A stretch of DNA of 64,000 bases from Cyanobacteria bacterium auto_48_18 (GTDB lineage Bacteria > Cyanobacteriota > Vampirovibrionia > Obscuribacterales > Obscuribacteraceae). The notes under the pieces are model-generated. The model searched no databases and had not been told where the DNA came from. It saw only the letters and a program-made list of their open reading frames with translations. The stretch spans positions 64,001-128,000 of the forward strand of contig JAVHQC010000025.1 in assembly GCA_036170915.1 (NCBI GenBank). Direction: 5' to 3'. A program made the translations under genes and the position numbers. Of the stretch, positions 4,313-52,608 are shown in pieces (position 1 is the stretch's first letter; the number at the start of each line of letters is the position of its first letter).

Positions 4313-5328
4313 CCACCGCCAATATCAAGTAATTCGGGATCTTTAGCGGCCAGCCACTTTTTGCGAATTCGCAGAGCCTCTGCGCGCAGTGGTGTAATCG
4401 CTGCACGCTCTTCCACTGTTTTTTCAGGGCACTGCCGAAGCACATCGGCAATCACCAGATTGACTCTGGCTCTAGCTAATTGCTCCTCCGGTTGCTCCGA
4501 ATGACTTAAGTTAGTCTGGGCTTTGGCAGCGGCGCATTCCGCTTCTTTAAATTCGCCGCTCATCAAATAAGCTTTGCTCAACTCTGCGAGCAAGCTGGCT
4601 TTGTAGCGATCTGGTGGTGTTTCTTCTCCACGCAAATCTAAGGCCAGGTGCAATAAAGTCAGGGCATCATCCGGTTGACCGGTGATATTAAGTGTGCGAG
4701 CTAATTCATAATAAGAGCTGGCCAGAGCGCGGTTCACGACTTCTAATTGTTGTGCAGCCGCGGCCGCATTCATCTGCAAATCTTTTTTGCGTTGCTCTAA
4801 AATTTCACAGCCTTTTTTGCCGGCCTTAAGTGCTTCTGAATATTTGCCCTGGTCTCTTAAAACCGAGCCAAGCAGCTCATAAGTAAGTCCTTCCGCTTCG
4901 ACTCTGTGATACTTTGCTTTTTGAGTGACGTTTTGCTCTGAATTAAATAAATCAATGGCCTGCCGCACTGTGGCTTCGGCTTCAGCGAATCTGGCTTGAC
5001 CACGCAAGACTTCAGCAAACAGCGCAAGATGGAAGCCGGTTTCAAGAGATCCGGGCGAAAATACTTCATGAAGGTTCAGAGAAAAATGCGCAAATTTCTC
5101 TGCGACCAGGAGCCTGCGATTAAGACCATAAATGGTGACAAAAATGGGCAATGCCGGATAAATGAAATAAGCCGAAAGCCCACCCACAATCAAGACGCCA
5201 ACAGGAGCAATCCATTTAAGTAGCGGTGTTGGGCAAAAATACCAGGCTACAACGCTGAGTAAAATCCACACCAGAGCATAGCTGCCCAGGATCACAATCG
5301 TCTCACGGGCAAGATTTTTGATTTGCAT
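4309..5328 (-). CDS. Membrane-anchored tetratricopeptide-repeat protein
   Basis: Two N-terminal TM helices; TPR-like motifs LRGQARFAEAE and LRDQGKYSEAL. Confidence 0.75.
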   Translation of the reverse strand: MQIKNLARETIVILGSYALVWILLSVVAWYFCPTPLLKWIAPVGVLIVGGLSAYFIYPALPIFVTIYGLNRRLLVAEKFAHFSLNLHEVFSPGSLETGFHLALFAEVLRGQARFAEAEATVRQAIDLFNSEQNVTQKAKYHRVEAEGLTYELLGSVLRDQGKYSEALKAGKKGCEILEQRKKDLQMNAAAAAQQLEVVNRALASSYYELARTLNITGQPDDALTLLHLALDLRGEETPPDRYKASLLAELSKAYLMSGEFKEAECAAAKAQTNLSHSEQPEEQLARARVNLVIADVLRQCPEKTVEERAAITPLRAEALRIRKKWLAAKDPELLDIGGG

Positions 5329-5342
5329 GCGAATGTGTCGAT

Positions 5343-6077
5343 TTAGAAGGTCGAGCGCATTTTGACTAGATCTGAGAAGGTGTCCCAGATTACTGAGAAC
5401 TTTCCACCAGAGGCACCTTGGGTGGTGCGGGGCAAATGTTCAATTGGAATCTCAATTACCTTGAAGCCGGCTCTTTCGGCACGAATGCAAAGTTCAGCAT
5501 CAACAAAAGGAGATTTCGAAAGCAATTCTACTTTGTCGAGAATGGCTCTTCTAAATAGTTTGATTGAGTTGACGTCTTTATGTTTGTGGCCATAAAAAGT
5601 ACGAAGCATCAAGTTATAAACTTTAGACTGCATTTTGCGGCGAGGCGGATCGTTGCGATTAACACGAAGGCCAATGACAAAATCGTGATCTTTGAGACCC
5701 TTGGCCATTTGCAGCAGCTCTTTTGGAGCATACTGATAATCACCCGGCAGAGAGAACACCAGATTCTTAGTGCCGCAGGTATAGAGTTCACGAATGGTGA
5801 AACCGAAGCCTCTATTGACTTCATGATTTATAAGCCTGACGTGACTGTTAGCAGCGCAACGCTCTTGAATCACAGACAGAGTGCGATCTTTACTGCCGTC
5901 GTTGACCACTACGATTTCATAATCGTCGCAAATTTCTGCAAGCAATTTGTCAGAGTCATCGATCAATCTGCCAATAGTTTCTTCATCGTTATAAGCAGGA
6001 ATGATTAGAGTCACCGGGTCCAATTTGATTTTGGAGTCCGTCGAGTTAGAGCGCTGTCTGGGTTGAGTGTTATTCAT
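5343..6077 (-). CDS. Glycosyltransferase family 2 (DPM1/polyprenol-phosphate type)
   Basis: IIPAYN..., VVVNDGSKDRT, NRGFG, DYQY, VIG.R motifs. Confidence 0.9.
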   Translation of the reverse strand: MNNTQPRQRSNSTDSKIKLDPVTLIIPAYNDEETIGRLIDDSDKLLAEICDDYEIVVVNDGSKDRTLSVIQERCAANSHVRLINHEVNRGFGFTIRELYTCGTKNLVFSLPGDYQYAPKELLQMAKGLKDHDFVIGLRVNRNDPPRRKMQSKVYNLMLRTFYGHKHKDVNSIKLFRRAILDKVELLSKSPFVDAELCIRAERAGFKVIEIPIEHLPRTTQGASGGKFSVIWDTFSDLVKMRSTF

Positions 6078-6107
6078 GGTTAGTCCAATTGGTGGTTCTA
6101 ATGACTG

Positions 6108-7271
6108 TTAGACAGTTTGTCCTTCGGCAAAAGCCGAAGTTGAAGTTTGTACATGACTTTCGGTGACAGCGCGCTCTTGATAGAAGGCCTTAATGCCGTC
6201 AATGACTTGGTCTACTTGCTCGCTTGTCATTTCTGCGAACATCGGCAAACTCAAAATGCGATTGACGATATGTTCGGTGGTAGGCAAACTGCCTTCGCCG
6301 TAACCGAGGAATTGATATGCCTGCTGGCGGTGAGCTGGAATCGGATAGTGAATCAAGCATTGCACGCCACGCTCAAGCAGATAAGCCTGCAATTCATCGC
6401 GGTCAGGAGTTTGAATCACATATAAATGATAGACATGCTTGAAGCCTGATGCTTCAACTGGCGTCACCACCAGATCCTTCAACCCTTCGGTATAACGTGC
6501 TGCAATCTGACGGCGCTGCTCATTCCACTGATGCACATAAGGAAGTTGTGCCGAGAGAATGGCGCATTGAATTTCATCAAGGCGACTATTGATGCCTAAG
6601 GTATCGTGATAGTAGCGCTTTGACTGACCATAATTGCGCAGCATCTTTAGCTTTTTGTATTTCTCTTCTGAATTAGTGGAGACCGCTCCACCATCACCAA
6701 AAGCGCCCAGGTTCTTGCTTGGATAGAAGCTGAAAGCACCATAATCTCCAATGCTGCCGGCCACAGCACCACGATAGGTGGCACCAGTAGCTTGAGCTAC
6801 ATCTTCCATAACTTTGATTTTGTGTTTGGCCGCGATCTTCATGATCGCTTCCATTTCAGCCATGTGACCGTAAATGTGCACAGGAACAATCATCTTTGTG
6901 CGAGGTGTAATTTTCGACTCAAGTTCAGTTTCGCGCATCACATAAGTCGAAGCTTTGATGTCTACAAATACAGGGGTGGCTCCAGTCATAGATATTGCCG
7001 AAATGGTAGGAACGGCAGTGTGAGCCACAACCAGCACTTCGTCGCCCGGCCCGATATCTTCAGCAGCCAGTGCAAGATATATTGCTTCAGTTCCAGAGGC
7101 GCAACCCACTACATATTTGGCACCAACGAATTGGGCAAACTCGGCTTCGAACTTATCCAGTTCCGGCCCAAGAATATAGTAGCCGCTAGCCAAAACCCGG
7201 GCCACAGCCTCATCGATTTGGGCCTTGTAAGCCTGATAGTGCACTTGCATGTTGCCGAATGGAACGTTCAA
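6108..7271 (-). CDS. DegT/DnrJ/EryC1/StrS family aminotransferase
   Basis: SGTEAI, EDVAQA, FSFYPSKNLGAFGDGG, NSRLDEIQ, LSLPM. Confidence 0.93.
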   Translation of the reverse strand: MNVPFGNMQVHYQAYKAQIDEAVARVLASGYYILGPELDKFEAEFAQFVGAKYVVGCASGTEAIYLALAAEDIGPGDEVLVVAHTAVPTISAISMTGATPVFVDIKASTYVMRETELESKITPRTKMIVPVHIYGHMAEMEAIMKIAAKHKIKVMEDVAQATGATYRGAVAGSIGDYGAFSFYPSKNLGAFGDGGAVSTNSEEKYKKLKMLRNYGQSKRYYHDTLGINSRLDEIQCAILSAQLPYVHQWNEQRRQIAARYTEGLKDLVVTPVEASGFKHVYHLYVIQTPDRDELQAYLLERGVQCLIHYPIPAHRQQAYQFLGYGEGSLPTTEHIVNRILSLPMFAEMTSEQVDQVIDGIKAFYQERAVTESHVQTSTSAFAEGQTV

Positions 7272-7585
7272 CGTTATTTTGCCTCGCTAAAACCGCTGCA
7301 CCTGAATGTGGTCTGTGCAATTCTAGTAGAAAAGAGCATGATTCGAATTAACCCTGCTTTAGTTGACAACATGCCTAACTCGCAACTAGCGCTTACAACC
7401 AGTGCCCGACTGCTATCACAATTCTAAAGAGTGGCGGTCGCTGAGCCCTTAAGGCTGTAACACCGTGTTAGAATCGAGCAGAAGTGAGACATGATCAAGT
7501 ATTTAGTGAATTTCATAGAGTCATAAACTTGATTCATTGTTTCAGACAAAGGTGTACTTCGGCATTCTGAGCGGAATTTAAGAAT

Positions 7586-8638
7586 ATGAGCCAGACAGTG
7601 GAAACAGCTTTCAAAGGCAAAACGGCATTAATCACAGGCGGCATGGGCTTTATCGGGTCCAACCTGGCCATTCGTCTGGCGAACCTGGGCGCAAAAGTTA
7701 CAGTTCTGGATTCAATGATTCCAGATTATGGTGGTAACGAGTTCAATCTTGCCCCCGTGAAAGATCGAGTGCGCATCAACTATTGCGACATTCGCGACGA
7801 GTCGGCGCTCGACTATCTTGTGCGCGGCCAAGATTACGTTTTCCACCTGGCGGGTCAAGTTTGCCATTTGATGAGCCTTTCCAATCCTTTCCCAGACATA
7901 CAAATCAATATCACCGGCACAGCGGTATTGATGGAAGCGCTTCGCAAATTTAACCCGAATGCTATCTGTGTATATACAGGCACTCGGGGCCAGTATGGTT
8001 CTTCGGTATCTCTGCCTGTCAATGAAGAAGCACCAACCAATCCAAAAGGCATTTACGAGATTTCAAATCTCACTGCTGAAAAAATCATCAAGGTCTATAA
8101 CGACGTGCATGGCATTCGTTCTGTGCTTTTGCGATTGAGCAACATTTACGGGCCACGTTCGCAGATGAAGCACTCGCGCTTCGGCGTTTGCAACTGGTTT
8201 GTGCGGCTGGCCATGGACAACGACGCCATTCAAGTTTATGGCGACGGTAGCATTTTGCGCGATTTTTGTTATGTAGACGACACTGTAGAAGCGATTATCA
8301 AATCAGCAGTGACGCCTAAGGCTTATGGCGAAATTTTCAATGTTGGCTCAGACATACCAGTGAGCTTCCTTGAATTGGTCAAAACAATTGTTGATGTAGC
8401 AAAAATGGGCAGCTGGGAATACGCTGAATTTTCGGCCGAACGCAAAGCTCAAGAGCCTGGCGATTTCTACTCAGACATTACAAAAATGAGAGAGATTGTA
8501 GGTTGGAGCCCCACCACAACCCTCGAACAAGGCTTAGAGAAAACCTGCGACTACTATCGCAAGAATCGTGATTATTACTGGTCGAAAGCTCCAGTCGGCA
8601 TGCCTTCTTCTAAAGAAGCCACTGCGACTAAAGTATGA
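7586..8638 (+). CDS. NAD-dependent epimerase/dehydratase (nucleotide-sugar)
   Basis: [11 protein letters not shown]ossmann motif, [22 protein letters not shown]; the YxxxK position reads YEISN. Confidence 0.9.
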
Positions 8639-9027
8639 ACGAAGGCGCCCGCACCAATGTAGCCAGTGGTACCCCGTGGGAGCCAATCGTAGGATATTCT
8701 CGCGCGGTTAAAGTGGGCAACTTCATTGCCGTTTCAGGTACTACAGCCACCGGTGAAGATGGAAAGATTGTGGGCCCAGGTGACGTTTATGCCCAGACCA
8801 TCCAGGCAATCAAGAATATTGAGAGTGCGCTAAAACAAGCCAAGGCTGAGCTGAAGCATGTGGTGCGCACTCGCATTTTCGTCACAGATATCAAAAACTG
8901 GGAACTGGTGGGTAAAGCCCATGGTGAATTCTTCGCTGACATTCGCCCCGCCACAAGCATGGTTGAAGTTTCAAGGCTAATATCATCTGACATGCTGGTG
9001 GAAATCGAAGCCGACGCTGTCATTTAG
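8635..9027 (+). CDS. RidA/YjgF/UK114 family protein
   Basis: [40 protein letters not shown] overlap with the upstream gene. Confidence 0.93.
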
Positions 9028-9035
9028 TTGCGATT

Positions 9036-9467
9036 TTAGTGGCGGTAAGCATCCACCCAATTTAATTGCAAATCATGAGCCTCGACGTTAAGAGGTAAGA
9101 GCTCAATGGTAAAAGTGCGGCGCTTCTCGCGCGACCCCGCTTCAAGCAAGTCAACTTTCGCGCCACCGCTGGCGGTGAGGGCCTCAAGTGAGCTGAAGCC
9201 AAAAAACCGTACCTGGGCCGTATCTGGCCATTCTCCCGACTTAAGTTTAATTGCTGCTCCGCCAATGCCGTTTTTCTTACGTACCTCTATATAGAGTTTA
9301 TTTTTTCTGGCAAAGGCGCTGACGTCATCTCCTCCGCGCAGGCCCGTACCGGTGACGGCAAATGTGGCAGTTGCGCCAGATGCCGACTGGCTGGGGAAAA
9401 GCAGCAGCAAGAACAAGCAAATCAAGCCCAGAAAATTGATGTGATGGTGACCAACTGGCAATTTCAA
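9036..9467 (-). CDS. Hypothetical secreted protein
   Basis: Signal-peptide-like N-terminus; fills the gap between genes. Confidence 0.55.
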   Translation of the reverse strand: MKLPVGHHHINFLGLICLFLLLLFPSQSASGATATFAVTGTGLRGGDDVSAFARKNKLYIEVRKKNGIGGAAIKLKSGEWPDTAQVRFFGFSSLEALTASGGAKVDLLEAGSREKRRTFTIELLPLNVEAHDLQLNWVDAYRH

Positions 9468-9557
9468 TTTGAATACCTTTTATCAGAGGCTTGCGAGCAC
9501 TACTAGGAACCTGAGCGATTTTTTGAGATACTGAGTTTTTTGAATTGAAGAGATCAG

Positions 9558-9818
9558 ATGAACAATAAGTTATTCGTGGGCAACCTGTCCTTCAAAATCG
9601 AAGAGGCCGAGCTGCAAGAAGTTTTTTCTCAGACCGGTTCAGTATTGTCTGTGTCCATTCCTACAGACAAATATACCGGCAAAAAACGCGGATTCGGTTT
9701 TGTCGAAATGGGCTCTGAAGAAGATGCCGAACAAGCGATTAAAGCCCTGAACGGCCGAGCTCTGGCCGGGCGCGAAATGTCGGTCAATCTGGCACGGCCA
9801 AAAACTCGTCAACCTTAA
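9558..9818 (+). CDS. RRM (RNP-1) RNA-binding protein
   Basis: LFVGNLSF (RNP2) and RGFGFVEM (RNP1). Confidence 0.95.
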   Translation: MNNKLFVGNLSFKIEEAELQEVFSQTGSVLSVSIPTDKYTGKKRGFGFVEMGSEEDAEQAIKALNGRALAGREMSVNLARPKTRQP

Positions 9819-9923
9819 TAATGAGTCTTTAATAACGATAAGCTATGGTCCATGAAGTGTGGGCAGCTCTTCTTCAAGAGTAGCTCTTGCTATAATTTGA
9901 GCTTGTCAAGCAAGTGGTATTCG

Positions 9924-12670: not shown

Positions 12671-12702
12671 GCAGTTAAAATAGAACAGTTAAATTTGAGC
12701 GC

Positions 12703-13338
12703 TTATCTAATAGAAGCGAGAGTCATTTTTAAGCATGACTCGATATGAGCCTGGCACATTTCGTTCGACAATAAATCAGTGCCTTCGGGCCAGAGACTCT
12801 TGAGGTTGTCTCGTGCGATGACGTAAAAGACGCACATGCCCACAATATTGGCTGTAACGTGCACCACATCACCCTGAGCAAACTCACCGCTTTGCATTCC
12901 GCGTCTCAGACTTTCAATCAATGGGCCATAAAGGCTGCCCACCGAAGTTTCCATATAATATCTGCCTTCGTTTTGTAAGGCCTCAAGCAGCATCAAGCTA
13001 CCAACGTTAGGATTCTGAATTATTGAAGCAAGAAGGTTACGCACCACAGCTGATACTGCGTCAGTTGGAGACAGATCATCTACATGCAGCGAATCTAGAT
13101 CAGCTCTGCGTTTGGCAATCAACCTTTCCATAACCGCTTTATAGAGGTTTTCTTTGTTCTCAAAATAATAGTGAATCATCGCCTTAGTCACACCCGTGCG
13201 GGCGGCGATAGATTCGGTACGGGCGCCCCAGAGGCCAACTTTTGCAAACTCTTGCTCCGCCGCATCTAATATGCTGTTGCGAGTCGCTTCGGCATCACGT
13301 GTTGGCGCTTTGACACCAGGCTTGGCAATTTTTTCCAT
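12703..13338 (-). CDS. TetR/AcrR family transcriptional regulator
   Basis: ILDAAEQEFA..G..GAR..IAARTGVTKAMIHYYFENKENLY HTH. Confidence 0.93.
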   Translation of the reverse strand: MEKIAKPGVKAPTRDAEATRNSILDAAEQEFAKVGLWGARTESIAARTGVTKAMIHYYFENKENLYKAVMERLIAKRRADLDSLHVDDLSPTDAVSAVVRNLLASIIQNPNVGSLMLLEALQNEGRYYMETSVGSLYGPLIESLRRGMQSGEFAQGDVVHVTANIVGMCVFYVIARDNLKSLWPEGTDLLSNEMCQAHIESCLKMTLASIR

Positions 13339-13538
13339 TTAATCAGTCCACTTGTTGTGCTTACAATTGTACTCTGGACACCGGGCTCCAATTAATATTT
13401 GAACGCAGATTGTCCATCAAGGGCTGCCTGGATTCATAATTCCCTTCTTTGACGGATAAAACACGCTTTCACATCAAGCCAGTTATACTTCACTTGAAAA
13501 AATATCCGAAAAAAGTTTGTAATCGCCCTGCTAGCAAG

Positions 13539-13564
13539 AAGGACCGGTCTATTAACCGGTCCTT
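13539..13564. terminator. Inverted repeat (terminator-like hairpin or operator) between the two tetR genes
   Basis: AAGGACCGGT-ctatta-ACCGGTCCTT, perfect 10-bp arms. Confidence 0.45.
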
Positions 13565-27781: not shown

Positions 27782-27808
27782 CAGAGAAATTTGCGCAAAT
27801 TTTCTCTG
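27782..27808. repeat. Dispersed palindrome CAGAGA-N15-TCTCTG (intergenic copy)
   Basis: CAGAGAAATTTGCGCAAATTTTCTCTG. Confidence 0.75.
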
Positions 27809-37434: not shown

Positions 37435-37459
37435 CTTTACGTCACATCACATCGATGAT

Positions 37460-39639: not shown

Positions 39640-41841
39640 TTGGATACAGAACGCAAAGTTTGTCCCACCTGCAAAAGAGAATTTTTCATGGACGTCGACA
39701 GCTGTCCTGACGACGGCAGCAGCCTGGCGCCAAAATCTAAAGACCCACTGGTAGGCACAGTTTTCGCTGAAAAATATGAAATTCTTTCGGTGATTGGCAC
39801 CGGCGGCATGAGCGTTATTTACAAAGCGCGCCACAAATATATGGAACGCCTATGCGCAGTTAAACTGCTGCAGCAATTTCTTGTGGCTGATGACTCAATG
39901 TTTCAACGCTTTCAATATGAAGCAAAAGCGGCCAGCACTTTATCGCATGTCAATGTCGTGGCCATGCACGACTTTGGTATTACCGGCGATGGCAGAGCTT
40001 ATCTAGTTATGGATTATCTGGATGGCGAAGATCTATCAACAGTTTTAGAGCGCGATGTTTTTCTCACTGAAGCCCAGGCCAAACCAATTTTCCTGCAAGT
40101 TTTATCGGGCCTGGCTCACGCTCACTCTAAAGGAGTGATTCATCGCGATCTGAAACCGAGCAATATTTTCTTGATTCCGCAATCAGGCAGCTTGACTGTG
40201 AAATTGGTAGATTTTGGTATCGCTAAAATCAACAATCCCGATAATGTCAGTCAATCGCTGACACGAACCGGCGAAGTCTTTGGCTCGCCACTCTACATGA
40301 GCCCTGAGCAATGCGCCGGCAAAAGTCTGGATGCCCGCTCCGATATTTATTCTCTGGGCTGTCTGATGTACGAAACTCTCTGTGGCCGGCGACCACTGGT
40401 AGGCGAATCAGCTTTAGAAACAATGCATATGCATTTAAAAGAAATGCCGCTCACTCTATCGCAAGCTGCTCCTAAAGCTAATATTTCTCCTGTCTTAGAA
40501 GCTGCGGTGATGAAGTGTTTGTGCAAATTAGCACAAGATCGTTTTCAAAGCGTGGCAGAACTTTACCAAGAAATTTATGGTCAGCCTTTGGCCAATATGA
40601 GTAATGATTTTATTACCGCCGGAATTCCTGTTCACTCGGGCGTGGGCGTAACTATTCATACTGGCAGTTCGCGCAAATCAGATGATTCAGGCTCTACCGG
40701 CACTAGCGGAAGTTCGCTCACAACTGCTGGCGCAGCTAGCAGTGCCGTGGCTAACGGTGCCGCGGCTACACCAGCTGAAAAACATAGCGCGCAAGATAAA
40801 GGTCACAAAAGAACGACGCCGCTGGTGGTGGCATTACTTCTCAGCGGTTTAGTTGCTAGCGCAGGCCTTTACTGGGTTATCGCTGTATGGCCAGGCCCAG
40901 AGAGTGACCGAGGCACACTTTTAAACCGTTGGATTTACGCCGGTTGGATTTCGCGGGCTGAACAGCTCGTCGCTCAGGCGCACTATAGCGAAGCCGAGCA
41001 AGCTTATAATCAAGCAGACAAAATTGCCGAAAGTTTTGGCGATAACTCTGGTCGGGTGATGACTGTGCTAGAAGCAAAACTTAGACTATTTGAGCTTTCC
41101 AATCAACCGAAAAAGAGCGAGGCGATCTTAAGGGCAATGGGTATCATTAACCGCGATCGCGCTCTCGCCGACTGCGATGCGTCACTCAAAGAAATAGACA
41201 AAATTAAAAAGTTGTATGAAAAGGCACGCGAGCTTGGCAAAGATGGTGCAATCAACAGCGAACGCGAGCTAGCATTACAAATGGGCACCAAGATTGCAGC
41301 CATAATCGGCGTTTCACAGAGATTGCGGGCAGCTAATGCATATGATGATCAAGAAAATTTGCTGCAAAAAACCACCGATTTATACAGTCAACTGGTTAGT
41401 AATGACGATCCGCAGTTAGCCGATTTAAAAACTGCGTTGGCTTATAGTCGTTGGGATCAAGATGAAATCGAGCCTGTACGCCCACTTCTGGCTCAGGCGT
41501 TGGCTATTACCATTAACGCTAACAAGCGCGACGCAAGACAATCTAGTCAGATTGATGTCGGCGAAGCCTGGCTTAGATTAGGACAATTCGATCGTGATCG
41601 CAGTGTGTTCCCTTATGCCCAGAAAGAACTAACTACAGCTTTGTCAATTTTGCGCGGCTATTCTAAACTTGATAAAAACAATCCAGAGTCAGTCAGAGCC
41701 TACAAACTATTAATTGAATGCCTTAATGCTAACGCCGACTACAAAACACAAGTGCATCAAGAAGCCGAAGCTCGTAATTTTCGCGCTGAAGCAGCCGAGT
41801 TGAAAAAGGTAAAACTGGATTACCATCCGGAGCCGCAATAG
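39640..41841 (+). CDS. Ser/Thr kinase with zinc ribbon, TM helix and TPR-like C-terminus
   Basis: CPTC...CPDD; IGTGGMS, AVK, HRDLKPSN, DFG, GSPLYMSPEQ. Confidence 0.93.
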   Translation: MDTERKVCPTCKREFFMDVDSCPDDGSSLAPKSKDPLVGTVFAEKYEILSVIGTGGMSVIYKARHKYMERLCAVKLLQQFLVADDSMFQRFQYEAKAASTLSHVNVVAMHDFGITGDGRAYLVMDYLDGEDLSTVLERDVFLTEAQAKPIFLQVLSGLAHAHSKGVIHRDLKPSNIFLIPQSGSLTVKLVDFGIAKINNPDNVSQSLTRTGEVFGSPLYMSPEQCAGKSLDARSDIYSLGCLMYETLCGRRPLVGESALETMHMHLKEMPLTLSQAAPKANISPVLEAAVMKCLCKLAQDRFQSVAELYQEIYGQPLANMSNDFITAGIPVHSGVGVTIHTGSSRKSDDSGSTGTSGSSLTTAGAASSAVANGAAATPAEKHSAQDKGHKRTTPLVVALLLSGLVASAGLYWVIAVWPGPESDRGTLLNRWIYAGWISRAEQLVAQAHYSEAEQAYNQADKIAESFGDNSGRVMTVLEAKLRLFELSNQPKKSEAILRAMGIINRDRALADCDASLKEIDKIKKLYEKARELGKDGAINSERELALQMGTKIAAIIGVSQRLRAANAYDDQENLLQKTTDLYSQLVSNDDPQLADLKTALAYSRWDQDEIEPVRPLLAQALAITINANKRDARQSSQIDVGEAWLRLGQFDRDRSVFPYAQKELTTALSILRGYSKLDKNNPESVRAYKLLIECLNANADYKTQVHQEAEARNFRAEAAELKKVKLDYHPEPQ

Positions 41842-41912
41842 CTTCCCTGGGGTGGGCGGTATCTTAGGTGGACGATTTTCGGGATAGAAGTGGATCCTGA
41901 ATCGTACTGGCC

Positions 41913-41951
41913 AAAACGCAGAGAAATTTGCGGTAAATTTCTCTGCGTTTT
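41913..41951. promoter_or_regulatory. Perfect 17-bp inverted repeat, best copy of the CAGAGA...TCTCTG family
   Basis: AAAACGCAGAGAAATTT-gcggt-AAATTTCTCTGCGTTTT. Confidence 0.7.
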
Positions 41952-42066
41952 TGAAGCCAAATTTCAGGAACTCGTTAAGTCACCGGCCGCAAAAGCACTT
42001 TTGAACTTTAAGCGTGCCTTTTACGTATTGATCAATAAGACACCATGCAAATTGTTGGAGGTTCCA

Positions 42067-42618
42067 ATGAGCAGCATTCGATTGATCAGAAGACATATCA
42101 GTTCACTAGCTCCCGGCGAAATAGTGACTACTCGTCAGTTTATGAATTACGGAACCAGGTCGGCAGTTGATCAAGCACTATTGAAGCTCGTGAAAATGAA
42201 AGAAATTGATAGGCTTTCGAGCGGTGTTTTTGTTGATAGTTACAAGCGTAGGCCTGAATACACTGCCGAAGAAATTCTTCAGGCAAAAGCAGACGCCTTT
42301 GATAAGAAAAGATTTGAAACCAGCTACAGGCGAGAGCATCTGGCCAATGAAAAATACGGCGAAATTATTCGAACTCTGTGGCAAATGGGTGAGAAAAATT
42401 GCGACCTTGAATATGTGCAAAAAGTAACGGCAAATTGGGACCGTGAGCAAGTTCACGGTCTTCTGGGGAACGCCAGATGGATGCCCTATTGGCTGCTAAA
42501 GCATTTCAGGGAAGTTTTTGGATACGCAACTTGTCGCAAGGTTGCCTATAAAACAATAGAAGATCACACTCGAACAGAGCGCAAAAATCTCATCGTTATT
42601 TCGCCGCACCAGCCATGA
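42067..42618 (+). CDS. DUF6088 / AbiEi-like winged-helix protein
   Basis: GEIVTTRQF..YGTRSAVDQAL..LVK...I.RL..GVF wHTH; GGAGG RBS at 42057. Confidence 0.75.
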   Translation: MSSIRLIRRHISSLAPGEIVTTRQFMNYGTRSAVDQALLKLVKMKEIDRLSSGVFVDSYKRRPEYTAEEILQAKADAFDKKRFETSYRREHLANEKYGEIIRTLWQMGEKNCDLEYVQKVTANWDREQVHGLLGNARWMPYWLLKHFREVFGYATCRKVAYKTIEDHTRTERKNLIVISPHQP

Positions 42619-43762
42619 CTGTCACTTTTGCTAGACCAGCTTCAAGATCTTGCACTAGATCGTCAATGTCTTCGATGCCTACGGACAGCCGTACCAGCGC
42701 ATCGACCACTCCCCGTGCATCACGCTCGGCTTTAGGAATAGAGCCATGCGTCATTGATACAGGATGGCAGACCAGCGATTCGACACCACCCAGGCTTTCC
42801 GCCAGGGCGAATAGTTTCGTTTGGCCAAGAAACTGGCGCGCACTCTCGAGCCCGCCTTTAAGAACGAATGAAACCATGCCGCCAAAACCATTCATCTGTT
42901 CTTTAGCAAGAGCATGTTGCGGATGGCTAGCCAAACCTGGATACATCACTTTCTCCACAGCTGGATGTTTTTCCAAATACTGAGCAATGGTCATAGCATT
43001 TTTCTGGTGGGCTTCCATACGCACAGCCAGGGTTTTCACTCCACGCATAACCAGCCAGCAATCCCACGGACCAGGCACGGCACCTACTGCGTTTTGATGG
43101 AATTTGAGAGTTTCGTAGAGGTCGTCTCTCGAGGTAATAACAGCACCACCGATGACATCACTATGACCACCGAGATATTTAGTCACTGAATGAACAACAA
43201 TATCTGCACCAAGAGCAAGTGGATTTTGCAAATAAGGGCTGGCAAAAGTATTGTCTACAACAGTAATTAACTTCTTCTCTTTCGCCACTGCGGCAATGGC
43301 TTTGATATCGCAGAGCCTCAAAAGCGGATTAGTAGGTGTTTCTACCCAGATCATTTTCGTATTTGGCAATATCGCTGCTTTAACTTTGCTGGCATCACTG
43401 GCATCGACATAAGTGAAAGTCAAACCGTAACGCTTCCATACTTTTTCAAATAACCTGTAGGTGCCACCATAAACATCATCGCCACAAATAACGTGATCAC
43501 CACTAGAAAGAATGTTCATGATATTGCCTTCAGCGGCTAATCCTGAACCGAAACAAAGTCCGTACTTCCCGCCTTCAAGCGAAGCCAGGCATTCTTCCAG
43601 AGCAAAACGCGTAGGATTCTGAGTGCGAGCATATTCAAAGCCTTTGTGCTGATTCAAACCTTCCTGAACATAGGTAGATGTTTGATAAACAGGTGTGATG
43701 ATGGCCCCGGTTGTAGGATCTGGTTCCTGACCGACGTGAATGGCTTTAGTCGAAAATTTCAT
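42596..43762 (-). CDS. Cystathionine gamma-lyase/synthase (Cys/Met PLP enzyme)
   Basis: YARTQNPTR, ETPTNP, DNTF, HSVTKYLGGHSD, LAESLGGVESL; directly downstream of cbs. Confidence 0.92.
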   Translation of the reverse strand: MKFSTKAIHVGQEPDPTTGAIITPVYQTSTYVQEGLNQHKGFEYARTQNPTRFALEECLASLEGGKYGLCFGSGLAAEGNIMNILSSGDHVICGDDVYGGTYRLFEKVWKRYGLTFTYVDASDASKVKAAILPNTKMIWVETPTNPLLRLCDIKAIAAVAKEKKLITVVDNTFASPYLQNPLALGADIVVHSVTKYLGGHSDVIGGAVITSRDDLYETLKFHQNAVGAVPGPWDCWLVMRGVKTLAVRMEAHQKNAMTIAQYLEKHPAVEKVMYPGLASHPQHALAKEQMNGFGGMVSFVLKGGLESARQFLGQTKLFALAESLGGVESLVCHPVSMTHGSIPKAERDARGVVDALVRLSVGIEDIDDLVQDLEAGLAKVTVMAGAAK

Positions 43763-43781
43763 GATTTTTTCCTCGATTTAA

Positions 43782-45209
43782 TTAAACAGAGATTTTTGCG
43801 GATTTTTCTCTGTCTTTTTTTCCGCTCAATTCTTTAGTGCTCAGGCCGCCCGCCGCGCGCAGGTGAGAAACGATGTCAAATTTCGTCAACACACCACAAG
43901 CTTTGCCTTCGTTAGTTAAAAGCACCATATTGCTGCCAAGCTTAAATTGCTTGTAAACACTATCGATTTCACTGGCGACATCCACCTGCGGGAATGGTCT
44001 TCCCATTACCGACGATACGGTTGTAGTCTCCGGATGCTTGCGTTCATAGACAATCTGCATCGTAATCAAATCGTTGATATGGCCAACGTTCTGACCAGCG
44101 GCTGTTACCACGGGCAATTGGTCGATTTGATATTTCTGCATAATATCGATGGCGGTCTGCACCGTTTCATCAGGCTGAATGGTGATCATGCCTGGAACTT
44201 TACCGGTAGTGGCTTTTCCTTCGAGCAAATCGCTGGCGAAGAAACTGACGCCTTCAGCCTGCAGGAAGCCATATTCGCGCATCCAGTCATCTGAATAAAT
44301 TTTGCTTAGATAGCCTCTGCCACCGTCAGGCAAAATCACGACAATAACGTCGTTTTCATCCATGGTTGCTGCTACTCGAAGAGCGGCTACAGTGGCTGTA
44401 CCACACGATCCACCTACGAGCAGCCCTTCTTCACGAGCCAAACGTCTGGCCATAATGAAGGAGTCTTTGTCAGCAACGCGCTCGAAGTGATCTACAATCT
44501 TCAAATCTGCATTACGCGGAATGAAATCTTCGCCAATACCTTCGACTTTATATGAACCTGGTGTGTCACCTGAATAAATAGAACCCTCAGGGTCAGCGCC
44601 CACTATTTTAATTTTGGGATTCTTCTCTTTAAGATAACGGGCGGTACCAGATATGGTGCCACCAGTGCCGGCACCGGCCACCAGACAGGTAATTTTGCCT
44701 GATGTCTGTTCCCATATTTCAGGACCAGTAGTCTCGTAATGCGAATCTGGATTATTGCTATTGGCAAACTGATTGGGCTGGAAAGAGCCTGGAATTTCCA
44801 TTGTTAGCCGATTGGCTACAGAATAATAACTTTCTGGAGAACTGGCAGAAACGGTGGACGGCACCATGACTACTTCCGCCCCATAAGCCTTGAGCAAATT
44901 TATTTTTTCAGGAGCGACCTTGTCAGGACATATCAAAATACATTTGTAGCCTTTTACTGCTGCAATCTGAGCCAGCCCGGTGCCGGTATTGCCTGACGTG
45001 GGCTCAATGATCGTTCCGCCCGGTTTAAGCAAACCTGCCTTTTCAGCCTCCTCGATCATCTTTAAGGAGGGCCTATCCTTAATTGATCCGCCTGGGTTAA
45101 AGACCTCGAGCTTGGCCAAAATTGTGGGTTTAAGCCCCTTTGTGACCTTATTTAACTTCACAAGAGGAGTTTCACCGATTGTTTCCAGAATGTTCTCGCA
45201 GTACTTCAC
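43782..45209 (-). CDS. cbs: Cystathionine beta-synthase with C-terminal CBS (Bateman) domains
   Basis: NPGGSIKDR, EPTSGNTG, GAGTGGT, YKVEGIG, PDGGRGYLSK; two CBS domains; GGAGG before the GTG at 45209. Confidence 0.9.
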   Translation of the reverse strand: MKYCENILETIGETPLVKLNKVTKGLKPTILAKLEVFNPGGSIKDRPSLKMIEEAEKAGLLKPGGTIIEPTSGNTGTGLAQIAAVKGYKCILICPDKVAPEKINLLKAYGAEVVMVPSTVSASSPESYYSVANRLTMEIPGSFQPNQFANSNNPDSHYETTGPEIWEQTSGKITCLVAGAGTGGTISGTARYLKEKNPKIKIVGADPEGSIYSGDTPGSYKVEGIGEDFIPRNADLKIVDHFERVADKDSFIMARRLAREEGLLVGGSCGTATVAALRVAATMDENDVIVVILPDGGRGYLSKIYSDDWMREYGFLQAEGVSFFASDLLEGKATTGKVPGMITIQPDETVQTAIDIMQKYQIDQLPVVTAAGQNVGHINDLITMQIVYERKHPETTTVSSVMGRPFPQVDVASEIDSVYKQFKLGSNMVLLTNEGKACGVLTKFDIVSHLRAAGGLSTKELSGKKDREKSAKISV

Positions 45210-45264
45210 AAGGAAGTCCTCCATTACAATATGTATGAGAAAGAATAGGTTTAATTATACGGCG

Positions 45265-46824: not shown

Positions 46825-47073
46825 TGCCCAACCCGAGCGCCTATGCGGGTATCCATCAATTTCTCCGCACAATTGCCGAAATACTACTGGTGTCGATGCT
46901 ACAGCCTGGTGTATGCTGCGATGTAGATGCGCGTTTTGGCAAGCACTTGTCAAATGCTCGCTATCAGCGTTGCTCTCGTCAAGAGATCACGACACTGGTT
47001 GTTCGCTTGCAGCTGGCAAATTGTGGCCTTACAGCGCTGAGTTTCTAAATCAATCAAAGGGTATCTGGGACGC

Positions 47074-48090
47074 ATGGTTCAAAAGGCTGGTCCGAAAAAA
47101 ATACTGGTTACAGGTGGAAGTGGGATGATTGGCCGCGCCATCGTCGCCCGTCTGGTGGCAACCAAACAATGTATCGTCAAATCGCAAGTGCGTGACAGGC
47201 TCGATGCCAGAAAAAAAGTGGGCGACAGCGTTGACCTGACCATGGTGGAAATGCTGCAAGCCGACTTCACCAGAGTTGGTGATCAAGAAATGCGCGCCCT
47301 GACTAATGACTGCGATTTCGTCATTCACGCCGCCGGTTTAGTGCATCAAGAGAGCGCTTCTTATCAGGAATACGAAGTCGTTAACGTACGTGCCACACAA
47401 CAATTGGCTGAAGCTTGTGTCGCTAACGGCGTACATACTCTGGTATTTTTTAGCACATCAGCCATTTACGGCAAAGGTCCCTTTAAGAATATTTCTGAAG
47501 CCGGTCCTTACGCCGCCAAGACACCATATGCGGTGTCTAAAATGACTAGCGAAAACTATTTGCAAACTCTTAATGGCAAAATTCCCCGCATTATTATTCT
47601 CAGGCCCTCGCTGGTTTTCGGCGAAGGAGACCGGGGCAATATGCTCTCTCTGATTAGACAAATAAAAGAAGAAAAGTATATTCATATCGGTGGCGGCGTT
47701 ACACCTAAAAGTTTGATTTACTCGAAAGACTTAGCCAACGCCGTGCATTTGTGTTTACAGAAAGTGCCCCCAGGCTATCATGTCTTCAACGTGGCCAATC
47801 CCAGCCCTGTAGCCATGAAAGACCTGGCTGAAAACATTGCTGCCACACTGAACGTCACCAAGAAATTTAGTTCGATACCTGAAGGTTTACTAAAGATGGG
47901 GCTCAAGGCAGCTCAAGCATTTATGCCCGGCAAAATTGCGGTCACTCCTGAGCAAGTTGAAAAGCTAGCTACTGAAACTACATGTTCAGTTGATAGCCTG
48001 GTTGGCGTCACCGGCTTCGCACCGGCCGCTGACATCAAATCGAGTATTAAGGCAGAAGTGGACTGGGCCACTGCCAATCAACTTCTTTAG
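47074..48090 (+). CDS. NAD-dependent epimerase/dehydratase family protein
   Basis: VTGGSGMIG, IHAAG, YAVSK (YxxxK), LRPSLVFG. Confidence 0.88.
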   Translation: MVQKAGPKKILVTGGSGMIGRAIVARLVATKQCIVKSQVRDRLDARKKVGDSVDLTMVEMLQADFTRVGDQEMRALTNDCDFVIHAAGLVHQESASYQEYEVVNVRATQQLAEACVANGVHTLVFFSTSAIYGKGPFKNISEAGPYAAKTPYAVSKMTSENYLQTLNGKIPRIIILRPSLVFGEGDRGNMLSLIRQIKEEKYIHIGGGVTPKSLIYSKDLANAVHLCLQKVPPGYHVFNVANPSPVAMKDLAENIAATLNVTKKFSSIPEGLLKMGLKAAQAFMPGKIAVTPEQVEKLATETTCSVDSLVGVTGFAPAADIKSSIKAEVDWATANQLL

Positions 48091-48125
48091 CTTCTCTAGC
48101 CACTCTTTGACAATATTAACTGCCA

Positions 48126-49499
48126 TTGCTAGATCAATACTTCAAATTAACTGAGCGCGGCACCACAATTCGCACAGAATTACTGGGCGGCTGCACCACT
48201 TTTTTGACCATGGCCTATATCATTGTGGTCAATCCGGCAATTCTTGCCTTCGCTGGAATACCGCAAGGCCCGTCTACAGTGGCCACGATTTTGACTGCAG
48301 TCTTTGGTTGTTTAGCGATGGGTTTATACGCTAACAGGCCGCTGGCAGTAGCACCCTATATGGGCGAAAATGCCTTTATCGCTTTCGGTTTAGCGGCATT
48401 AGGAATTAGCTGGCAGTTGCGTCTTGGCGCCGTATTCGTTAGCGGCCTGGCATTTCTCGCTATGTCGCTTTTAAAAATTCGCCCATGGCTGGCCAATTCC
48501 ATTTCAAACAGTATGAAGCACAGCTTTGCCGCAGGCATCGGCATGTTTCTGACACTGATTGGCCTTTACGAAACCGGCCTAATAGAAAGTGCTGCACAAG
48601 GCATGCCCTTCAAGGTGCTACTAAGCGCAGATGGTATTACCCTCGGTGCCCCACCCGTTCCGCTCAAATTAGGTAATCTGCACGACATCAAAGTGCTTCT
48701 CACCATATTTGGCACCATCACTACAGCAGCGTTATTGGCGAAAAAAGTAAGAGGCGCAATTTTGATCGGTATCGTTCTCACTGCTGTAGCCGGTTTTGTT
48801 TGTGGTGTTGGCGAACTGCCCAAAGCGATTTTCTCGATACCGTTTCAGGGTGAGTATAGCCTGGCCCCAATTCTGTTCCAGCTTGATATTGCCTCTACTC
48901 TGAAATTAAGTTTCTTGCCCATATTACTTACTCTTTTTCTCATGAGCTTTCTCGATACGTTGAGCACGCTCGTAGGTGTTGGTGCCAACTGCGGCATGGT
49001 GGACGAAAAGGGTAATTTGAGCGACATTGAGAAGCCTATGATCGTCGACGCCAGCTCTTGCATCTTTTCTGCTTTAATCGGCTCGTCTACCAGTGGTGCT
49101 TTTATCGAATCAGCCGCAGGCATTCGTGAAGGAGCACGCACGGGGCTGGCAGCAGTTACCTGCGCCCTTCTGTTTTTTGTCACACTCTTTTTCATTCCTC
49201 TTATGCAACCGCTGCAACATTTAAAATATGCATACGGACCGGCTTTGATTTGTGTTGGTCTGCTCATGTGCAGTTCGCTGAAAAAAATTGATGTAGACGA
49301 TTTGACTGAAGCCTTTCCATCGTTTGCCACTATCGCCATGATGGTTTTTACTTACAGCATTGCCAACGGACTGACAGCCGGTCTGGTGATATACGCAGCA
49401 ATAAAAACTTTAACCGGACGCATAAAAGAAGTGTCTCCCGGCGCGTGGATACTGGCAGCCATGTGCCTGACCTATTTCCTATTCGGTTTGCCTCACTAA
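48126..49499 (+). CDS. NCS2/AzgA-type purine permease
   Basis: TTFLTMAYIIVVNP, APYMGENAF, IESAAGIREGARTGL. Confidence 0.92.
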   Translation: MLDQYFKLTERGTTIRTELLGGCTTFLTMAYIIVVNPAILAFAGIPQGPSTVATILTAVFGCLAMGLYANRPLAVAPYMGENAFIAFGLAALGISWQLRLGAVFVSGLAFLAMSLLKIRPWLANSISNSMKHSFAAGIGMFLTLIGLYETGLIESAAQGMPFKVLLSADGITLGAPPVPLKLGNLHDIKVLLTIFGTITTAALLAKKVRGAILIGIVLTAVAGFVCGVGELPKAIFSIPFQGEYSLAPILFQLDIASTLKLSFLPILLTLFLMSFLDTLSTLVGVGANCGMVDEKGNLSDIEKPMIVDASSCIFSALIGSSTSGAFIESAAGIREGARTGLAAVTCALLFFVTLFFIPLMQPLQHLKYAYGPALICVGLLMCSSLKKIDVDDLTEAFPSFATIAMMVFTYSIANGLTAGLVIYAAIKTLTGRIKEVSPGAWILAAMCLTYFLFGLPH

Positions 49500-49523
49500 A
49501 AATCAGTCAAGCTTCAAGTTTGG

Positions 49524-49889
49524 CTAGATGCGGGAGAAATACTGCATAAGATCGCCGCGAGAAATTCCGGCAATATCGTTACGAGAAATGCCTAGCGGAT
49601 TAGGCCCGTCATGATCGTCATATGCACAGCTAATGCGATCCAAATTTTTCAGCAAGAAACGAACGTAGTTTTGCTGCCGCTGATCAAGATTGCAATGCTC
49701 AATGGCAAATTCAAGTTCTGTTTGCGAAAGAAAACGATTGCCGTCTACGTCGATAGCGTCGAAAGTTGCAAGGGCAAAATGCTTTATTTCTGCGAGCAAA
49801 TCATTGATGCTAATGCCGTCGCAGATAGCCGGCCGCGGCCAAAAGTCACGCATTTCTTTAACGCTGGGCATACTTTCTTGTGATCGCAT
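49524..49889 (-). CDS. Hypothetical protein with an EF-hand loop
   Basis: FDAIDVDGNRFLSQTEL EF-hand-like motif. Confidence 0.6.
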   Translation of the reverse strand: MRSQESMPSVKEMRDFWPRPAICDGISINDLLAEIKHFALATFDAIDVDGNRFLSQTELEFAIEHCNLDQRQQNYVRFLLKNLDRISCAYDDHDGPNPLGISRNDIAGISRGDLMQYFSRI

Positions 49890-49901
49890 ATCAGTATTTT
49901 A

Positions 49902-51860
49902 TCACTGAGCCTTGAGCAACTGTTCACTGAGAGATTGCGCCACTCTTGCCTCATCTTCGCTAAGGTTACCAGAAGCAGCCAGCGCAGCCAGACGAGACTG
50001 CAGGTCAAGCAAAAATTGGCGGTCGTAGGCATTGTGAGCGCCAATTGCACTGGCTTCAGCTTTTCGGTAGTGCACTAAGGCCTCACTATGATTGCCTCGA
50101 CCTTCGGCTAGACCACCCTCGATAATTTCTAAAGGCAAGGTATAAGCACCAAGTGCCGACATATTTTTTATGCTCTGCGCCCTCTTCATGAGAAATGCGG
50201 TCTGATCATATTTTTTCAAAGCCAAGCTAATCAGTGCCGCTTGCAACAGCACTTCTTGATTGAAAGGCTGCCGACTGAGAGCCTTATGGATGTGCTCGTC
50301 TGCCTCTGCATATTGCTTAGCAGCAAAAAGAATGCGTGCTCGAGTCATGAGAAAAAAGGTTATGTCTTCGCCCTGGTGAAAAGTTTGAGGATCGGACGAA
50401 TAACGCGCTAATTCTGACTCAGCGCCGGCCAGGTCACCGGCTAGAAGTTTGGCCTGCGCCATTAAACACCGGGCTTTAAAAATATACTGAGGATTTTGTG
50501 TGCCGCTTATCCCTTCACTAAGTAACAAGCGCGCCTTTTTCTGAGCCAGCTTGTAATTGCCTGAGTACAAATCCAGCTCTGCTTTTTCCAGCAAGACAAG
50601 ACCGTCCTCGGGGGCTAGTTTGGCCGCGTGCTCCAGCAGTTCTTCAGCGGCCTTGAACTTGCGCTGGTAGAAATAAACTCGCACAATATTCAATCTCGGC
50701 TCGACAAAATCACGCTTGAGAAATATGGCTCTTTGCCAATCGCGCTCTGCTGTGCTGAAATCGCTCTGGTCTTGCTCGGCTAGACGAAATTCAGCCTGCC
50801 CCAAACCATTCCAGCCCGCAGCAAAAGTAGGCTCAAGTTTGACTGACCACTGATAGTAATCGCGCGCCAATTCAAAATGACCCTGCGCTGCTGCTTTGCC
50901 TGCGCTGTTGAAACAATAATAGACCATGGCCTTGCGACCAAGAAAAATCAGAAGACTAAAAAGGACAATGGTGCCAACTAGAATTTTTTGTTTATCAAGC
51001 CACTGATACGTGCGTTTGACGCGACGCCAGTCTTCAACGTTGCGGCTGGCAATTGCAGTGTCACTGTCAATAATATTTCTAGTATCACTTGTAGTGGCAA
51101 GAACGGCGTAACTATTATCGAGACTCTCAGGCAAAGCTGTGGTTGGTAAAGCGCCGCTGCGTTCAAAGACTGTCTTGACCAGCCGATCGAAAGTTTCTTT
51201 ACTGAAGAAAAATGATGGTACATAGTTAGGAAAGAGCAGCTGCGACAGTAATTTGTTTTTGATTTCAAAGTGAAAAAGAATAGTCAGGCGACGCGCTGTT
51301 TCTTTCAAGGAAAATAGCCTGGTAAAGAAAAAATTGGGCTCCACAGAAACGGCGCTAATAGATTTCCATGGAACCAAGCGGTCAAAGCGCGAAAGTTTTA
51401 TTCCTTTATCAGAAACCCATACGCCTCTGCTGACAAAGCGCAATAACTGCGTAATAGCCAGAAATCCGAGAAACCAGATGACGGCAGCGATTATCCAGTC
51501 TCCCACCACGCGCAAAAAAAGCACGGTGACAGACGTGGCATTAGGTATAAGTGGAATGACATCAGTGATGGCCAATACAGAGGCGATAAAAACGGACGAT
51601 CCTGCCGCCAGTTGAGTTAGCGCTTGAGAATCGAAGGCAAAAAGCTCAGAGCCGAGATCCGTGTTCACCTCTTGGCCAGGTGATTTTGAATTTTTCAAGT
51701 AATTTTGTGGTACGTCTTCTGCAATTTCTTTGGCAATTTTTCTTGCAACTTTTCTTCCGACATGGGTGCTGTCTATCTTAGACCCTGCTTGGCTTTCCAC
51801 ACTCCATGTAACGAATCTAAAAAGTTGGACAAAAACATTAGACCATGACATATTGAACAA
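49902..51860 (-). CDS. Membrane protein with C-terminal TPR repeats
   Basis: Three TM segments, then TPRs (PTFAAGWNGLG, DFVEPRLN); start uncertain. Confidence 0.75.
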   Translation of the reverse strand: MFNMSWSNVFVQLFRFVTWSVESQAGSKIDSTHVGRKVARKIAKEIAEDVPQNYLKNSKSPGQEVNTDLGSELFAFDSQALTQLAAGSSVFIASVLAITDVIPLIPNATSVTVLFLRVVGDWIIAAVIWFLGFLAITQLLRFVSRGVWVSDKGIKLSRFDRLVPWKSISAVSVEPNFFFTRLFSLKETARRLTILFHFEIKNKLLSQLLFPNYVPSFFFSKETFDRLVKTVFERSGALPTTALPESLDNSYAVLATTSDTRNIIDSDTAIASRNVEDWRRVKRTYQWLDKQKILVGTIVLFSLLIFLGRKAMVYYCFNSAGKAAAQGHFELARDYYQWSVKLEPTFAAGWNGLGQAEFRLAEQDQSDFSTAERDWQRAIFLKRDFVEPRLNIVRVYFYQRKFKAAEELLEHAAKLAPEDGLVLLEKAELDLYSGNYKLAQKKARLLLSEGISGTQNPQYIFKARCLMAQAKLLAGDLAGAESELARYSSDPQTFHQGEDITFFLMTRARILFAAKQYAEADEHIHKALSRQPFNQEVLLQAALISLALKKYDQTAFLMKRAQSIKNMSALGAYTLPLEIIEGGLAEGRGNHSEALVHYRKAEASAIGAHNAYDRQFLLDLQSRLAALAASGNLSEDEARVAQSLSEQLLKAQ

Positions 51861-51902
51861 GGGTTAATATTAACCGTGACGAATGCATGCGAGGTATGTC
51901 CT

Positions 51903-52577
51903 TTGAAAATCCTGATCATTGAAGACGACGTGAATATCGCGCGTCTCATCGAACTTGAGCTCGGCTATGAAGGTTATCAAGTTTCCGTGGCTCACGATGG
52001 CAATCAAGGTCTTGATCTTTTCAAGAAAGACCAGCCCGAACTGGTTCTTCTCGACGTCATGCTCCCTGGCCTCGACGGGATTGAAGTTTGTAAGCGCTTG
52101 CGCTCAATGTCCAAAGTTCCAGTGATCATGCTCACCGCCAAAGACGGCGTGCAAGACAGAGTAAGCGGACTCGATAGCGGCGCAGACGATTATCTGACTA
52201 AGCCATTTGCTACTGAAGAACTACTGGCCAGAATTAGAGCCGTAATGCGGAGAAAACCAGCGGAAGGCATTCTTACATATGCCGATCTGTGGATGGATCA
52301 ACTTAATCGAGTAGTCAAAAGAGGCGAACGCCAGCTCGATTTGAGAGCTAAAGAGTTCGATCTGTTGAGATTGTTCATGCAGTATCCAGAACAAGTGCTT
52401 TCCCGTGAGTTCATTTTCGACAAAGTCTGGGGCTATGACTTTATCGGCGAATCAAACGTAATTGAAGTCTATATTCGATATTTGCGTTCTAAGCTTGAAG
52501 ACGCCACTTCTAAGCGCTTGATTCAGACTGTCAGAGGTGAAGGCTACGTCTTGAGAGAAGAAGAGCCTTCAAGATAA
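51903..52577 (+). CDS. OmpR/PhoB-family response regulator (MprA-like); no adjacent histidine kinase
   Basis: IIEDD, LLDVMLPG, LTAKD, GADDYLTKPF, NVIEVYIRYLR, TVRGEGY. Confidence 0.95.
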   Translation: MKILIIEDDVNIARLIELELGYEGYQVSVAHDGNQGLDLFKKDQPELVLLDVMLPGLDGIEVCKRLRSMSKVPVIMLTAKDGVQDRVSGLDSGADDYLTKPFATEELLARIRAVMRRKPAEGILTYADLWMDQLNRVVKRGERQLDLRAKEFDLLRLFMQYPEQVLSREFIFDKVWGYDFIGESNVIEVYIRYLRSKLEDATSKRLIQTVRGEGYVLREEEPSR

Positions 52578-52581
52578 AACA

Positions 52582-52608
52582 CAGAGAAATTTGGGCAAGA
52601 AATCTCTG
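52582..52608. repeat. Dispersed palindrome CAGAGA-N15-TCTCTG (intergenic copy)
   Basis: CAGAGAAATTTGGGCAAGAAATCTCTG, just after the stop codon. Confidence 0.65.

Follow-up and report, generated by a model that had tools for sequence, protein, structure and literature searches.

A dispersed palindrome in an Obscuribacteraceae genome as the probable binding site and front end of a small cassette with a toxin-less AbiEi-fold gene

A stretch of 64,000 nucleotides from the genome of Cyanobacteria bacterium auto_48_18 (contig JAVHQC010000025.1, positions 64,001 to 128,000), here called the window, contains five copies of a palindrome, CAGAGA-N14/15-TCTCTG. The copy at 41919 heads a cassette that consists of the palindrome, a promoter of the extracytoplasmic function (ECF) type and a toxin-less DUF6088 gene with the AbiEi fold. 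We consider it fairly probable that the palindrome is the inverted-repeat binding site of the DUF6088 protein and the front end of a small selfish cassette, and that it spreads both with the cassette and apart from it, forming repeats like repetitive extragenic palindromes (REPs) but without a REP-associated tyrosine transposase (RAYT). The cassette and its host neighbours are arranged as follows:

39640..41841, plus strand: gene for a Ser/Thr kinase, the host neighbour to the left of the cassette
41907..41956, no strand: full-length palindrome (core 41919-41945), front end of the cassette, from the profile and the loci of relatives
42001..42027, plus strand: motif TTGAAC-N17-CGTA, taken as an ECF-type promoter from its form and place
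42067..42618, plus strand: solo DUF6088/AbiEi-fold gene, 183 aa, with GGAGG at 42057-42061
42596..43762, minus strand: gene for a Cys/Met lyase, the convergent host neighbour to the right, whose end overlaps the DUF6088 stop codon

The open reading frame (ORF) of the DUF6088 gene was called from 41890 and overlaps the palindrome; the aligned start is the ATG at 42067, and the 41919 copy lies 121 bp 5' of it.

The whole cassette comes and goes together, mostly between convergent genes, and when the gene is lost the palindrome can stay behind. Empty, full and scar states are found at one locus, that between kinase and lyase: the gap is 10 bp in G004 and, with another hairpin in it, 85 bp in G002; G009 and the genome holding the window (G000; 4.94 Mb, 86 % complete, 39 contigs, positions given as Cn:position) have the full cassette, and G006 has the palindrome with a ~45-bp 3' stub of the DUF6088 gene. 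A contig of another study skips 41845-42549 with borders as in G006; it may not be independent and was not counted. At C33:197673, G009 has the full cassette, G000 only the palindrome and G006 neither, and G000 lacks three further cassettes that G009 and G006 carry, along with their repeats. The host gap was convergent at 27 of 39 scorable cassette loci (17 more were not scorable). The cassette can also reach many near-identical copies, which was unexpected without a transposase: G023, from another genus, has 17 copies (88-99 % identical) of a related cassette of ~815 bp, most of which start with a degenerate palindrome; every copy ends with the stop codon, be it TAA, TAG or TGA.

That the cassette boundary lies at the palindrome would also fit a tyrosine-recombinase site, dif- or att-like with ~10-bp arms and a 6-7 bp spacer, at which a host integrase moves the cassette. 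The geometry fits loosely, and four integrase-family genes of G000 were over the cut-off. We nevertheless regard this explanation as very unlikely, as the right end has no second site, none is kept at empty loci, the pieces gained range in length from 27 to about 124 bp, and the four integrase loci checked had neither palindrome nor ECF promoter.

The coordinates and letters of the five palindromes are as given in the initial annotation, and Pfam bore out its gene labels (TPR, aminotransferase III, PALP+CBS, Cys/Met lyase, response regulator, and DUF6088, which is below the cut-off in the window copy). Besides the cassette copy they are:

5077..5102, no strand: palindrome core inside a TPR gene (4309-5328, minus strand), a length-neutral replacement of partly similar sequence in the ortholog alignment
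27782..27808, no strand: solo palindrome between a GNAT gene and the aminotransferase gene, from comparison of relatives' loci
43787..43812, no strand: degenerate palindrome within the final codons of the cbs gene (43782-45224, minus strand), from relatives' loci
52582..52608, no strand: solo palindrome in a convergent gap, immediately behind the stop codon of the response-regulator gene, from relatives' loci
52631..52661, plus strand: separate GC-rich hairpin with a T run, terminator-like, behind the 52582 copy

The occurrence above chance that had been estimated from the window held there (five matches, where 100 dinucleotide shuffles gave 0.05 on average) and extended to the genome, where 43 exact copies compare with 0.33 expected per spacing from hexamer counts. 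The half-site spacing is constant, as claimed: 19 copies have N14 and 24 have N15, N13 gave none, N16 one unrelated-looking match, and every other spacing from 0 to 40 gave 0-2 matches. With the half-sites in reversed order there was no match in G000 at spacing 15 and one at 14. The palindrome is among the strongest fixed-spacing palindromes of G000 when runs of N are excluded. A profile search of G000 yielded 46 matches with E<=1e-3, and the reversed genome, as control, gave nothing better than E 2.9; with two further degenerate copies that entered later comparisons, the family has 46-48 members. Density is higher in the window (five per 64 kb) than in the genome (mean 0.56), and the distribution over the 39 contigs is borderline uneven (p 0.06). 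The profile shows an element longer than first described, of ~45 bp with arms of ~21 bp: roughly GCCAAAACGCAGAGAAATTT, 4-5 bases, then the complement. The TG(C/G)G centre proved not to be general, since 14 of the 43 copies have TCGA, TTGA or TCAA. No Rfam family reached its gathering score in the window. A DNA uptake sequence was rejected, because single half-sites are not over-represented (27 outside palindromes, 27-38 expected).

Palindromes without a gene arrive as short patches of varying length, also inside genes, and no target duplication was seen at the solo sites compared. An ABC ATPase loop has 27 additional bp in frame, gained in G000 alone, and in a membrane-protein gene partly similar sequence was replaced with the length unchanged. 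The TPR gene shows no gap against 14 orthologues; the core is present in G009, has one change in G006 and is absent from the other 12. At C15:181958 G000 is 57 bp longer than G006, and both a gain and a partial loss fit because the G006 sequence resembles the outer arm. G000 has the palindrome at C36:260417 where G006 and G009 have another hairpin, and at C22:414277 the CAGAGA type stands where G009 has a different palindrome family. Presence in relatives, suggested earlier as a check, was borne out in part: G006 keeps the palindrome at 15 of 21 orthologous sites compared and G009 at 9 of 15, but it is absent from all nine sites compared with G002, G003 or G004. The copies at 43787 and 52582 are kept in G006 and G009 and absent in G002, G003 and G004; that at 27782 is degenerate in G006 and absent in the other four.

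This retention of the core at orthologous places bears on another explanation, in which a domesticated DUF6088 protein, or some other dimer, binds sites that the host has selected for roadblock control or chromosome organisation; these would have been built by point mutation, and the cassette site would be one of them. The strict spacing and the two in-gene copies that arose from partly similar sequence without change of length speak for it too. It would however have to account for the few divergent gaps, a promoter only at the cassette sites, copies that add length, the absence from all nine sites in the three other genomes and the swapping of variant types between sister clades, and we find it unlikely.

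The positions of the copies do not support the regulon box proposed in the initial annotation. Among the 49 profile hits in G000, 38 were intergenic by our codon-model gene caller, 19 of these in convergent, 16 in tandem and 3 in divergent gaps, compared with 298, 1606 and 730 gaps overall (n=2634; convergent bias, p 4e-9). An ECF-type promoter lies within 250 bp of only 2 of 48 copies, both before DUF6088 genes. As only 3 of 38 intergenic copies are divergent and 19 are convergent, the palindrome is not the mark of a promoter regulon. A chromosome-organisation site is less likely given the fast turnover between close relatives. A REP-like element, the third suggestion, agrees well with a dispersed, multi-copy, mostly intergenic palindrome whose gap pattern is that of REPs and unlike that of operators; a convergent-gap bias of REPs is described in PMC3733652. 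The connection with the DUF6088 cassette had escaped the initial annotation.

Whether the palindrome acts as DNA or as RNA had also been addressed, with preference for a dimeric-protein site over an RNA hairpin. The protein site is supported by the fixed 14/15 spacing, by a core conserved in sequence and not in pairing, by the poor folding of the in-gene copy and by a candidate binder gene directly behind the 41919 copy. Some hairpin character is left, since pairing exceeds conservation at outer arm positions 3-4, and only there (26 vs 18.5 and 33 vs 25.6 pairs). This covariation, together with the strong hairpins of the best copies (z -6 to -7), arms that changed together between G003 and G013, replacement of the older hairpin at C36:260417 and the REP-like convergent bias, could indicate an ordinary untagged REP-like hairpin family, a terminator or mRNA stabiliser that spreads independently and beside which DUF6088 cassettes only insert. 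Such a family does not readily explain why neither palindrome nor gene is present at empty loci, nor the fixed loop length, and a hairpin is strong in some copies only, the in-gene copy folding no better than shuffles (z -0.2). Only 21 of 86 arms have at least 5 T in the next 8 bases, and the 52582 copy is followed by a separate terminator-like hairpin, present in G000, G006 and G009. We judge an independent hairpin family to be quite unlikely.

The protein encoded in the cassette resembles AbiEi. Pfam DUF6088 or AbiEi_4 was over the cut-off in the four other G000 paralogues, corresponding to a winged helix-turn-helix (wHTH) and an AbiEi-type C-terminal fold. For the full-length paralogue at C35:228258-228914 the predicted fold had pLDDT 94, and the best Foldseek match was AbiEi 6Y8Q (E 5e-4; VIA Z 7.3 over 172 aligned residues, with a high root-mean-square deviation of 6.2). 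A fold search with the window's internally deleted protein gave no match at E<=0.001, a sequence search of solved structures gave weak wHTH matches only, and a contig scan with the C35 paralogue gave no match. The gene family occurs in 34 of 36 genomes of the family Obscuribacteraceae, with 1 to 50 matches each, and in none of 7 outside. Relatives of one family protein at ten loci were labelled Obscuribacterales or Obscuribacteraceae (five), Cyanobacteriota (one), uninformative (three) or discordantly (one), and the nearest Atlas clusters are DUF6088 proteins, commonest in Melainabacteria. No AbiEii nucleotidyltransferase toxin (PF08843) was found in G000, and the cassette neighbours are host genes; antitoxins beside AbiEii in relatives match the DUF6088 family profile weakly.

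Two of the five DUF6088-like genes of G000 have the CAGAGA palindrome upstream and two another long inverted repeat, and all five are preceded by TTGAAC-N16/17-CGTW. Among 37 non-redundant family genes, out of 64 collected, this motif was upstream of 34 (35 of 1567 controls), an AGAAA-N9-12-TTTCT-type core upstream of 15 (27 of 1567) and a strong inverted repeat upstream of 14 (7 of 300). The link between palindrome and cassette is seen again, with different sequences, in further genomes of the family.

Palindromes read from other cassettes were used as predictions for dispersal in other genomes, and such dispersal recurs within the family, though not always; none of the types was found in 9 genomes outside it. 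The strict CAGAGA pattern has 37 copies in G000, 13 in G023, 12 in G006, 5 in G009 and 0-2 in the other 57 genomes. In a quick tree, built without 19 near-copies and including one label (L052) that came from a false regex match, CAGAGA-type cassettes form two protein clades, G000/G009 and G023; G006 retains a scar only, and 3 of the 13 copies in G023 head a gene. A TAAGAAA type has 3-10 copies in nine sister-clade genomes and none in G000, G004, G006 and G009; in five sister-clade genomes one copy stands ~140 bp before a family gene, probably at one orthologous locus. Of a GTCAGA type, G017 has 42 copies and several other genomes have 11-17. The G017 palindromes cluster in groups of 2-3, 38-95 bp apart, like bacterial interspersed mosaic elements.

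Several results weigh against the palindrome being a cassette-derived binding site. The TAAGAAA type is not dispersed in G016, G026 and G029 (0-1 copies), a family gene stands at only 1 of 12 GTCAGA-type loci fetched, the CAGCGA type gave one match among 41 genomes with a pattern that missed longer spacings, and an everted type gave one match in G000. Strict cores are lacking upstream of 22 of the 37 family genes, and because palindrome and gene are inherited together, their covariation is no proof of binding. The window DUF6088 gene is internally deleted by ~50 aa relative to homologues and its G009 orthologue is split. Among 48 G000 sites no gene remnant stands beside palindromes other than at the two cassette sites, so that the scar route is shown at two loci only. 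No enzyme that moves the cassette was found; by eye the 17 G023 copies have no terminal inverted repeat at the right end and no target duplication in the flanks, and as they are mosaic, gene conversion may have made old copies look young. All genomes compared are metagenome bins, and the genes were called with our own crude codon-model caller.

In G000 TTGAAC-N16/17-CGTW also precedes comEC, recA, recJ, comM/YifB, priA, yraN, xseA, a comF-like gene, radA, radC and a gene for an ECF sigma factor, and it stands before some envelope and export genes unrelated to these; a promoter-like motif ATTGAACTTTTT ... CGTW has about 40 sites in G000 (e.g. L144, L145, L146, L147, L138). It is probably the ECF promoter of a recombination and DNA-uptake gene set, and the shared promoter points to such an ECF-sigma-driven set in non-photosynthetic cyanobacterial relatives. 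Behind the same type of motif stand nine G000 paralogues of 255-374 aa with a Zn-ribbon start and a DprA winged-helix domain (L124-L132; C6, C8, C15, C20, C22, C23, C25, C3). Their ends resemble IS1595 transposases, but no DDE family was matched by the nine.

By analogy with AbiEi on its 23-3-23 bp operator, two monomers of the DUF6088 protein would bind the two arms of the palindrome. When the ECF gene set is on, palindrome-bearing pieces of DNA, protein-bound or folded, may survive and be patched in at microhomologies by the host, as in SPDIR (short-patch double illegitimate recombination), with no need for an element-encoded recombinase. The survivors would gather where harm is least, and some may later serve as 3' hairpins. 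Movement by such patching during induction of the set is a tentative guess, made because no Y1 transposase was found, because the ends are irregular and because no catalytic site is recognised in the protein. Equally tentative is the view of the whole as a transposase-free mobile element, in which a lone AbiEi-fold protein, on together with the uptake and recombination genes, would bind the palindrome and host recombination would write palindrome, with or without gene, into new sites. SPDIR microindels in Acinetobacter baylyi consist of patches, 3 to about 100 bp long, that are joined at microhomologies, and DNA uptake raises their frequency (bioRxiv 2023.11.22.568220). The variable-length gains here resemble them; SPDIR as described there is however rare and not sequence-specific, and its link to the palindrome is our suggestion.

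The pair of palindrome and cassette works like REP-RAYT and looks like an AbiEi operator, yet it is a member of neither, as it has no tag or RAYT and no toxin. AbiE is a type IV toxin-antitoxin system (S. agalactiae; Rv2827c), and according to PMC3985639 and PMC7319586 AbiEi binds two 23-bp repeats that lie 3 bp apart; DUF6088 is listed as an AbiEii partner in one survey table in PMC12654330. Like AbiE, the cassette has a wHTH with an AbiEi-type C-terminal fold and an upstream inverted repeat, here with ~21-bp arms and a 4-5 bp centre. Unlike AbiE, it has no adjacent toxin, has 5 to about 50 scattered matches per genome and dozens of gene-less repeat copies, and in this genus carries the repeat 55-100 bp upstream of the promoter instead of over it. 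With REP/REPIN and RAYT (TnpA-REP) it shares short, dispersed, lineage-specific palindromes, mostly in convergent or tandem gaps and some in genes, and one partner gene. It differs in having no GTAG/CGTC tag at a fixed place (GTAG, GTGG or CGTC anywhere within 22 bp in only 6 of 43 copies) and in its partner, a DNA-binding protein without a known catalytic site that is itself multi-copy and has the repeat on one side only. A RAYT/IS200 partner was rejected, since the Y1 transposase PF01797 was not found in any of five genomes, a result weakened by their incompleteness (77-97 % complete). Miniature inverted-repeat transposable elements and insertion sequences are likewise multi-copy units with sharp borders, as in G023; the cassette has no terminal inverted repeats at both ends, target duplication or transposase domain.

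In Rickettsia palindromic elements a palindrome is read in frame inside protein loops. The in-frame copies here are similar to these; the palindrome here is much shorter, and two in-gene copies are replacements, not insertions.

Literature searches covering titles or abstract starts, with supplements and most subscription papers outside their scope, gave no description of this cassette, repeat or promoter. Untagged REP-like palindromes have been without a known source, and PMC3733652 closes by asking whether they tie to specific DNA-binding proteins; here a repeat family is traced to the repeat upstream of an antitoxin-like gene. This offers a testable origin for bacterial repeats lacking a known transposase. 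On the tentative view of a transposase-free mobile element, every clade of cassettes would give rise to a REP-like family of its own, and untagged palindromic repeats without RAYT would thereby be explained. In vitro tests of the protein-DNA pairs are possible without a culture of the organism.

Further palindromes were seen in G000 and its relatives. A gene for a Clp N-domain protein behind topA carries an in-frame palindrome copy that is kept in the sister clade with one arm varying (L002, L004, L007, L008, L010, L353-L361); this gene was not found in G000, G006 and G009, and the CAGCGA copy of G003 is not at this site. That the single-copy sites in other genus members are one ancestral locus was rejected, as there are several loci (the Clp-N gene behind topA, dps and others). 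At C33:179000-182100 (L230) three palindromes lie in tandemly duplicated small paralogous genes before a gene of 2063 aa. G003 has a tandem array of hairpin-like units beside a tRNA cluster (L110:3300-3850), and a solo palindrome of G000 stands nearby at C33:15563.

Other repeats are present in the same genome. A second palindrome family, AAAAATACC-N6-GGTATTTTT, is represented in the window at 58953-58979 and has ~20 copies, 12 of them in convergent gaps; G006 has many copies of it as well. A third, at 30 loci in G000, has TACAAC-N6-GTTGTA cores, often doubled, within TAAGAAATTT ends (e.g. C6:129075, C11:141860), and is the family that stands in G009 at the C22:414277 site. The perfect palindrome ACCGTTAACGGT has 30 copies (C8:7829-45094, C29 and C5), 14 of them on one contig, clustered like a partition site. 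The two ends of the window, 1-2000 and 62001-64000, show a strong A-over-T skew of 0.33 and 0.21, the start lying within an ORF of 941 aa.

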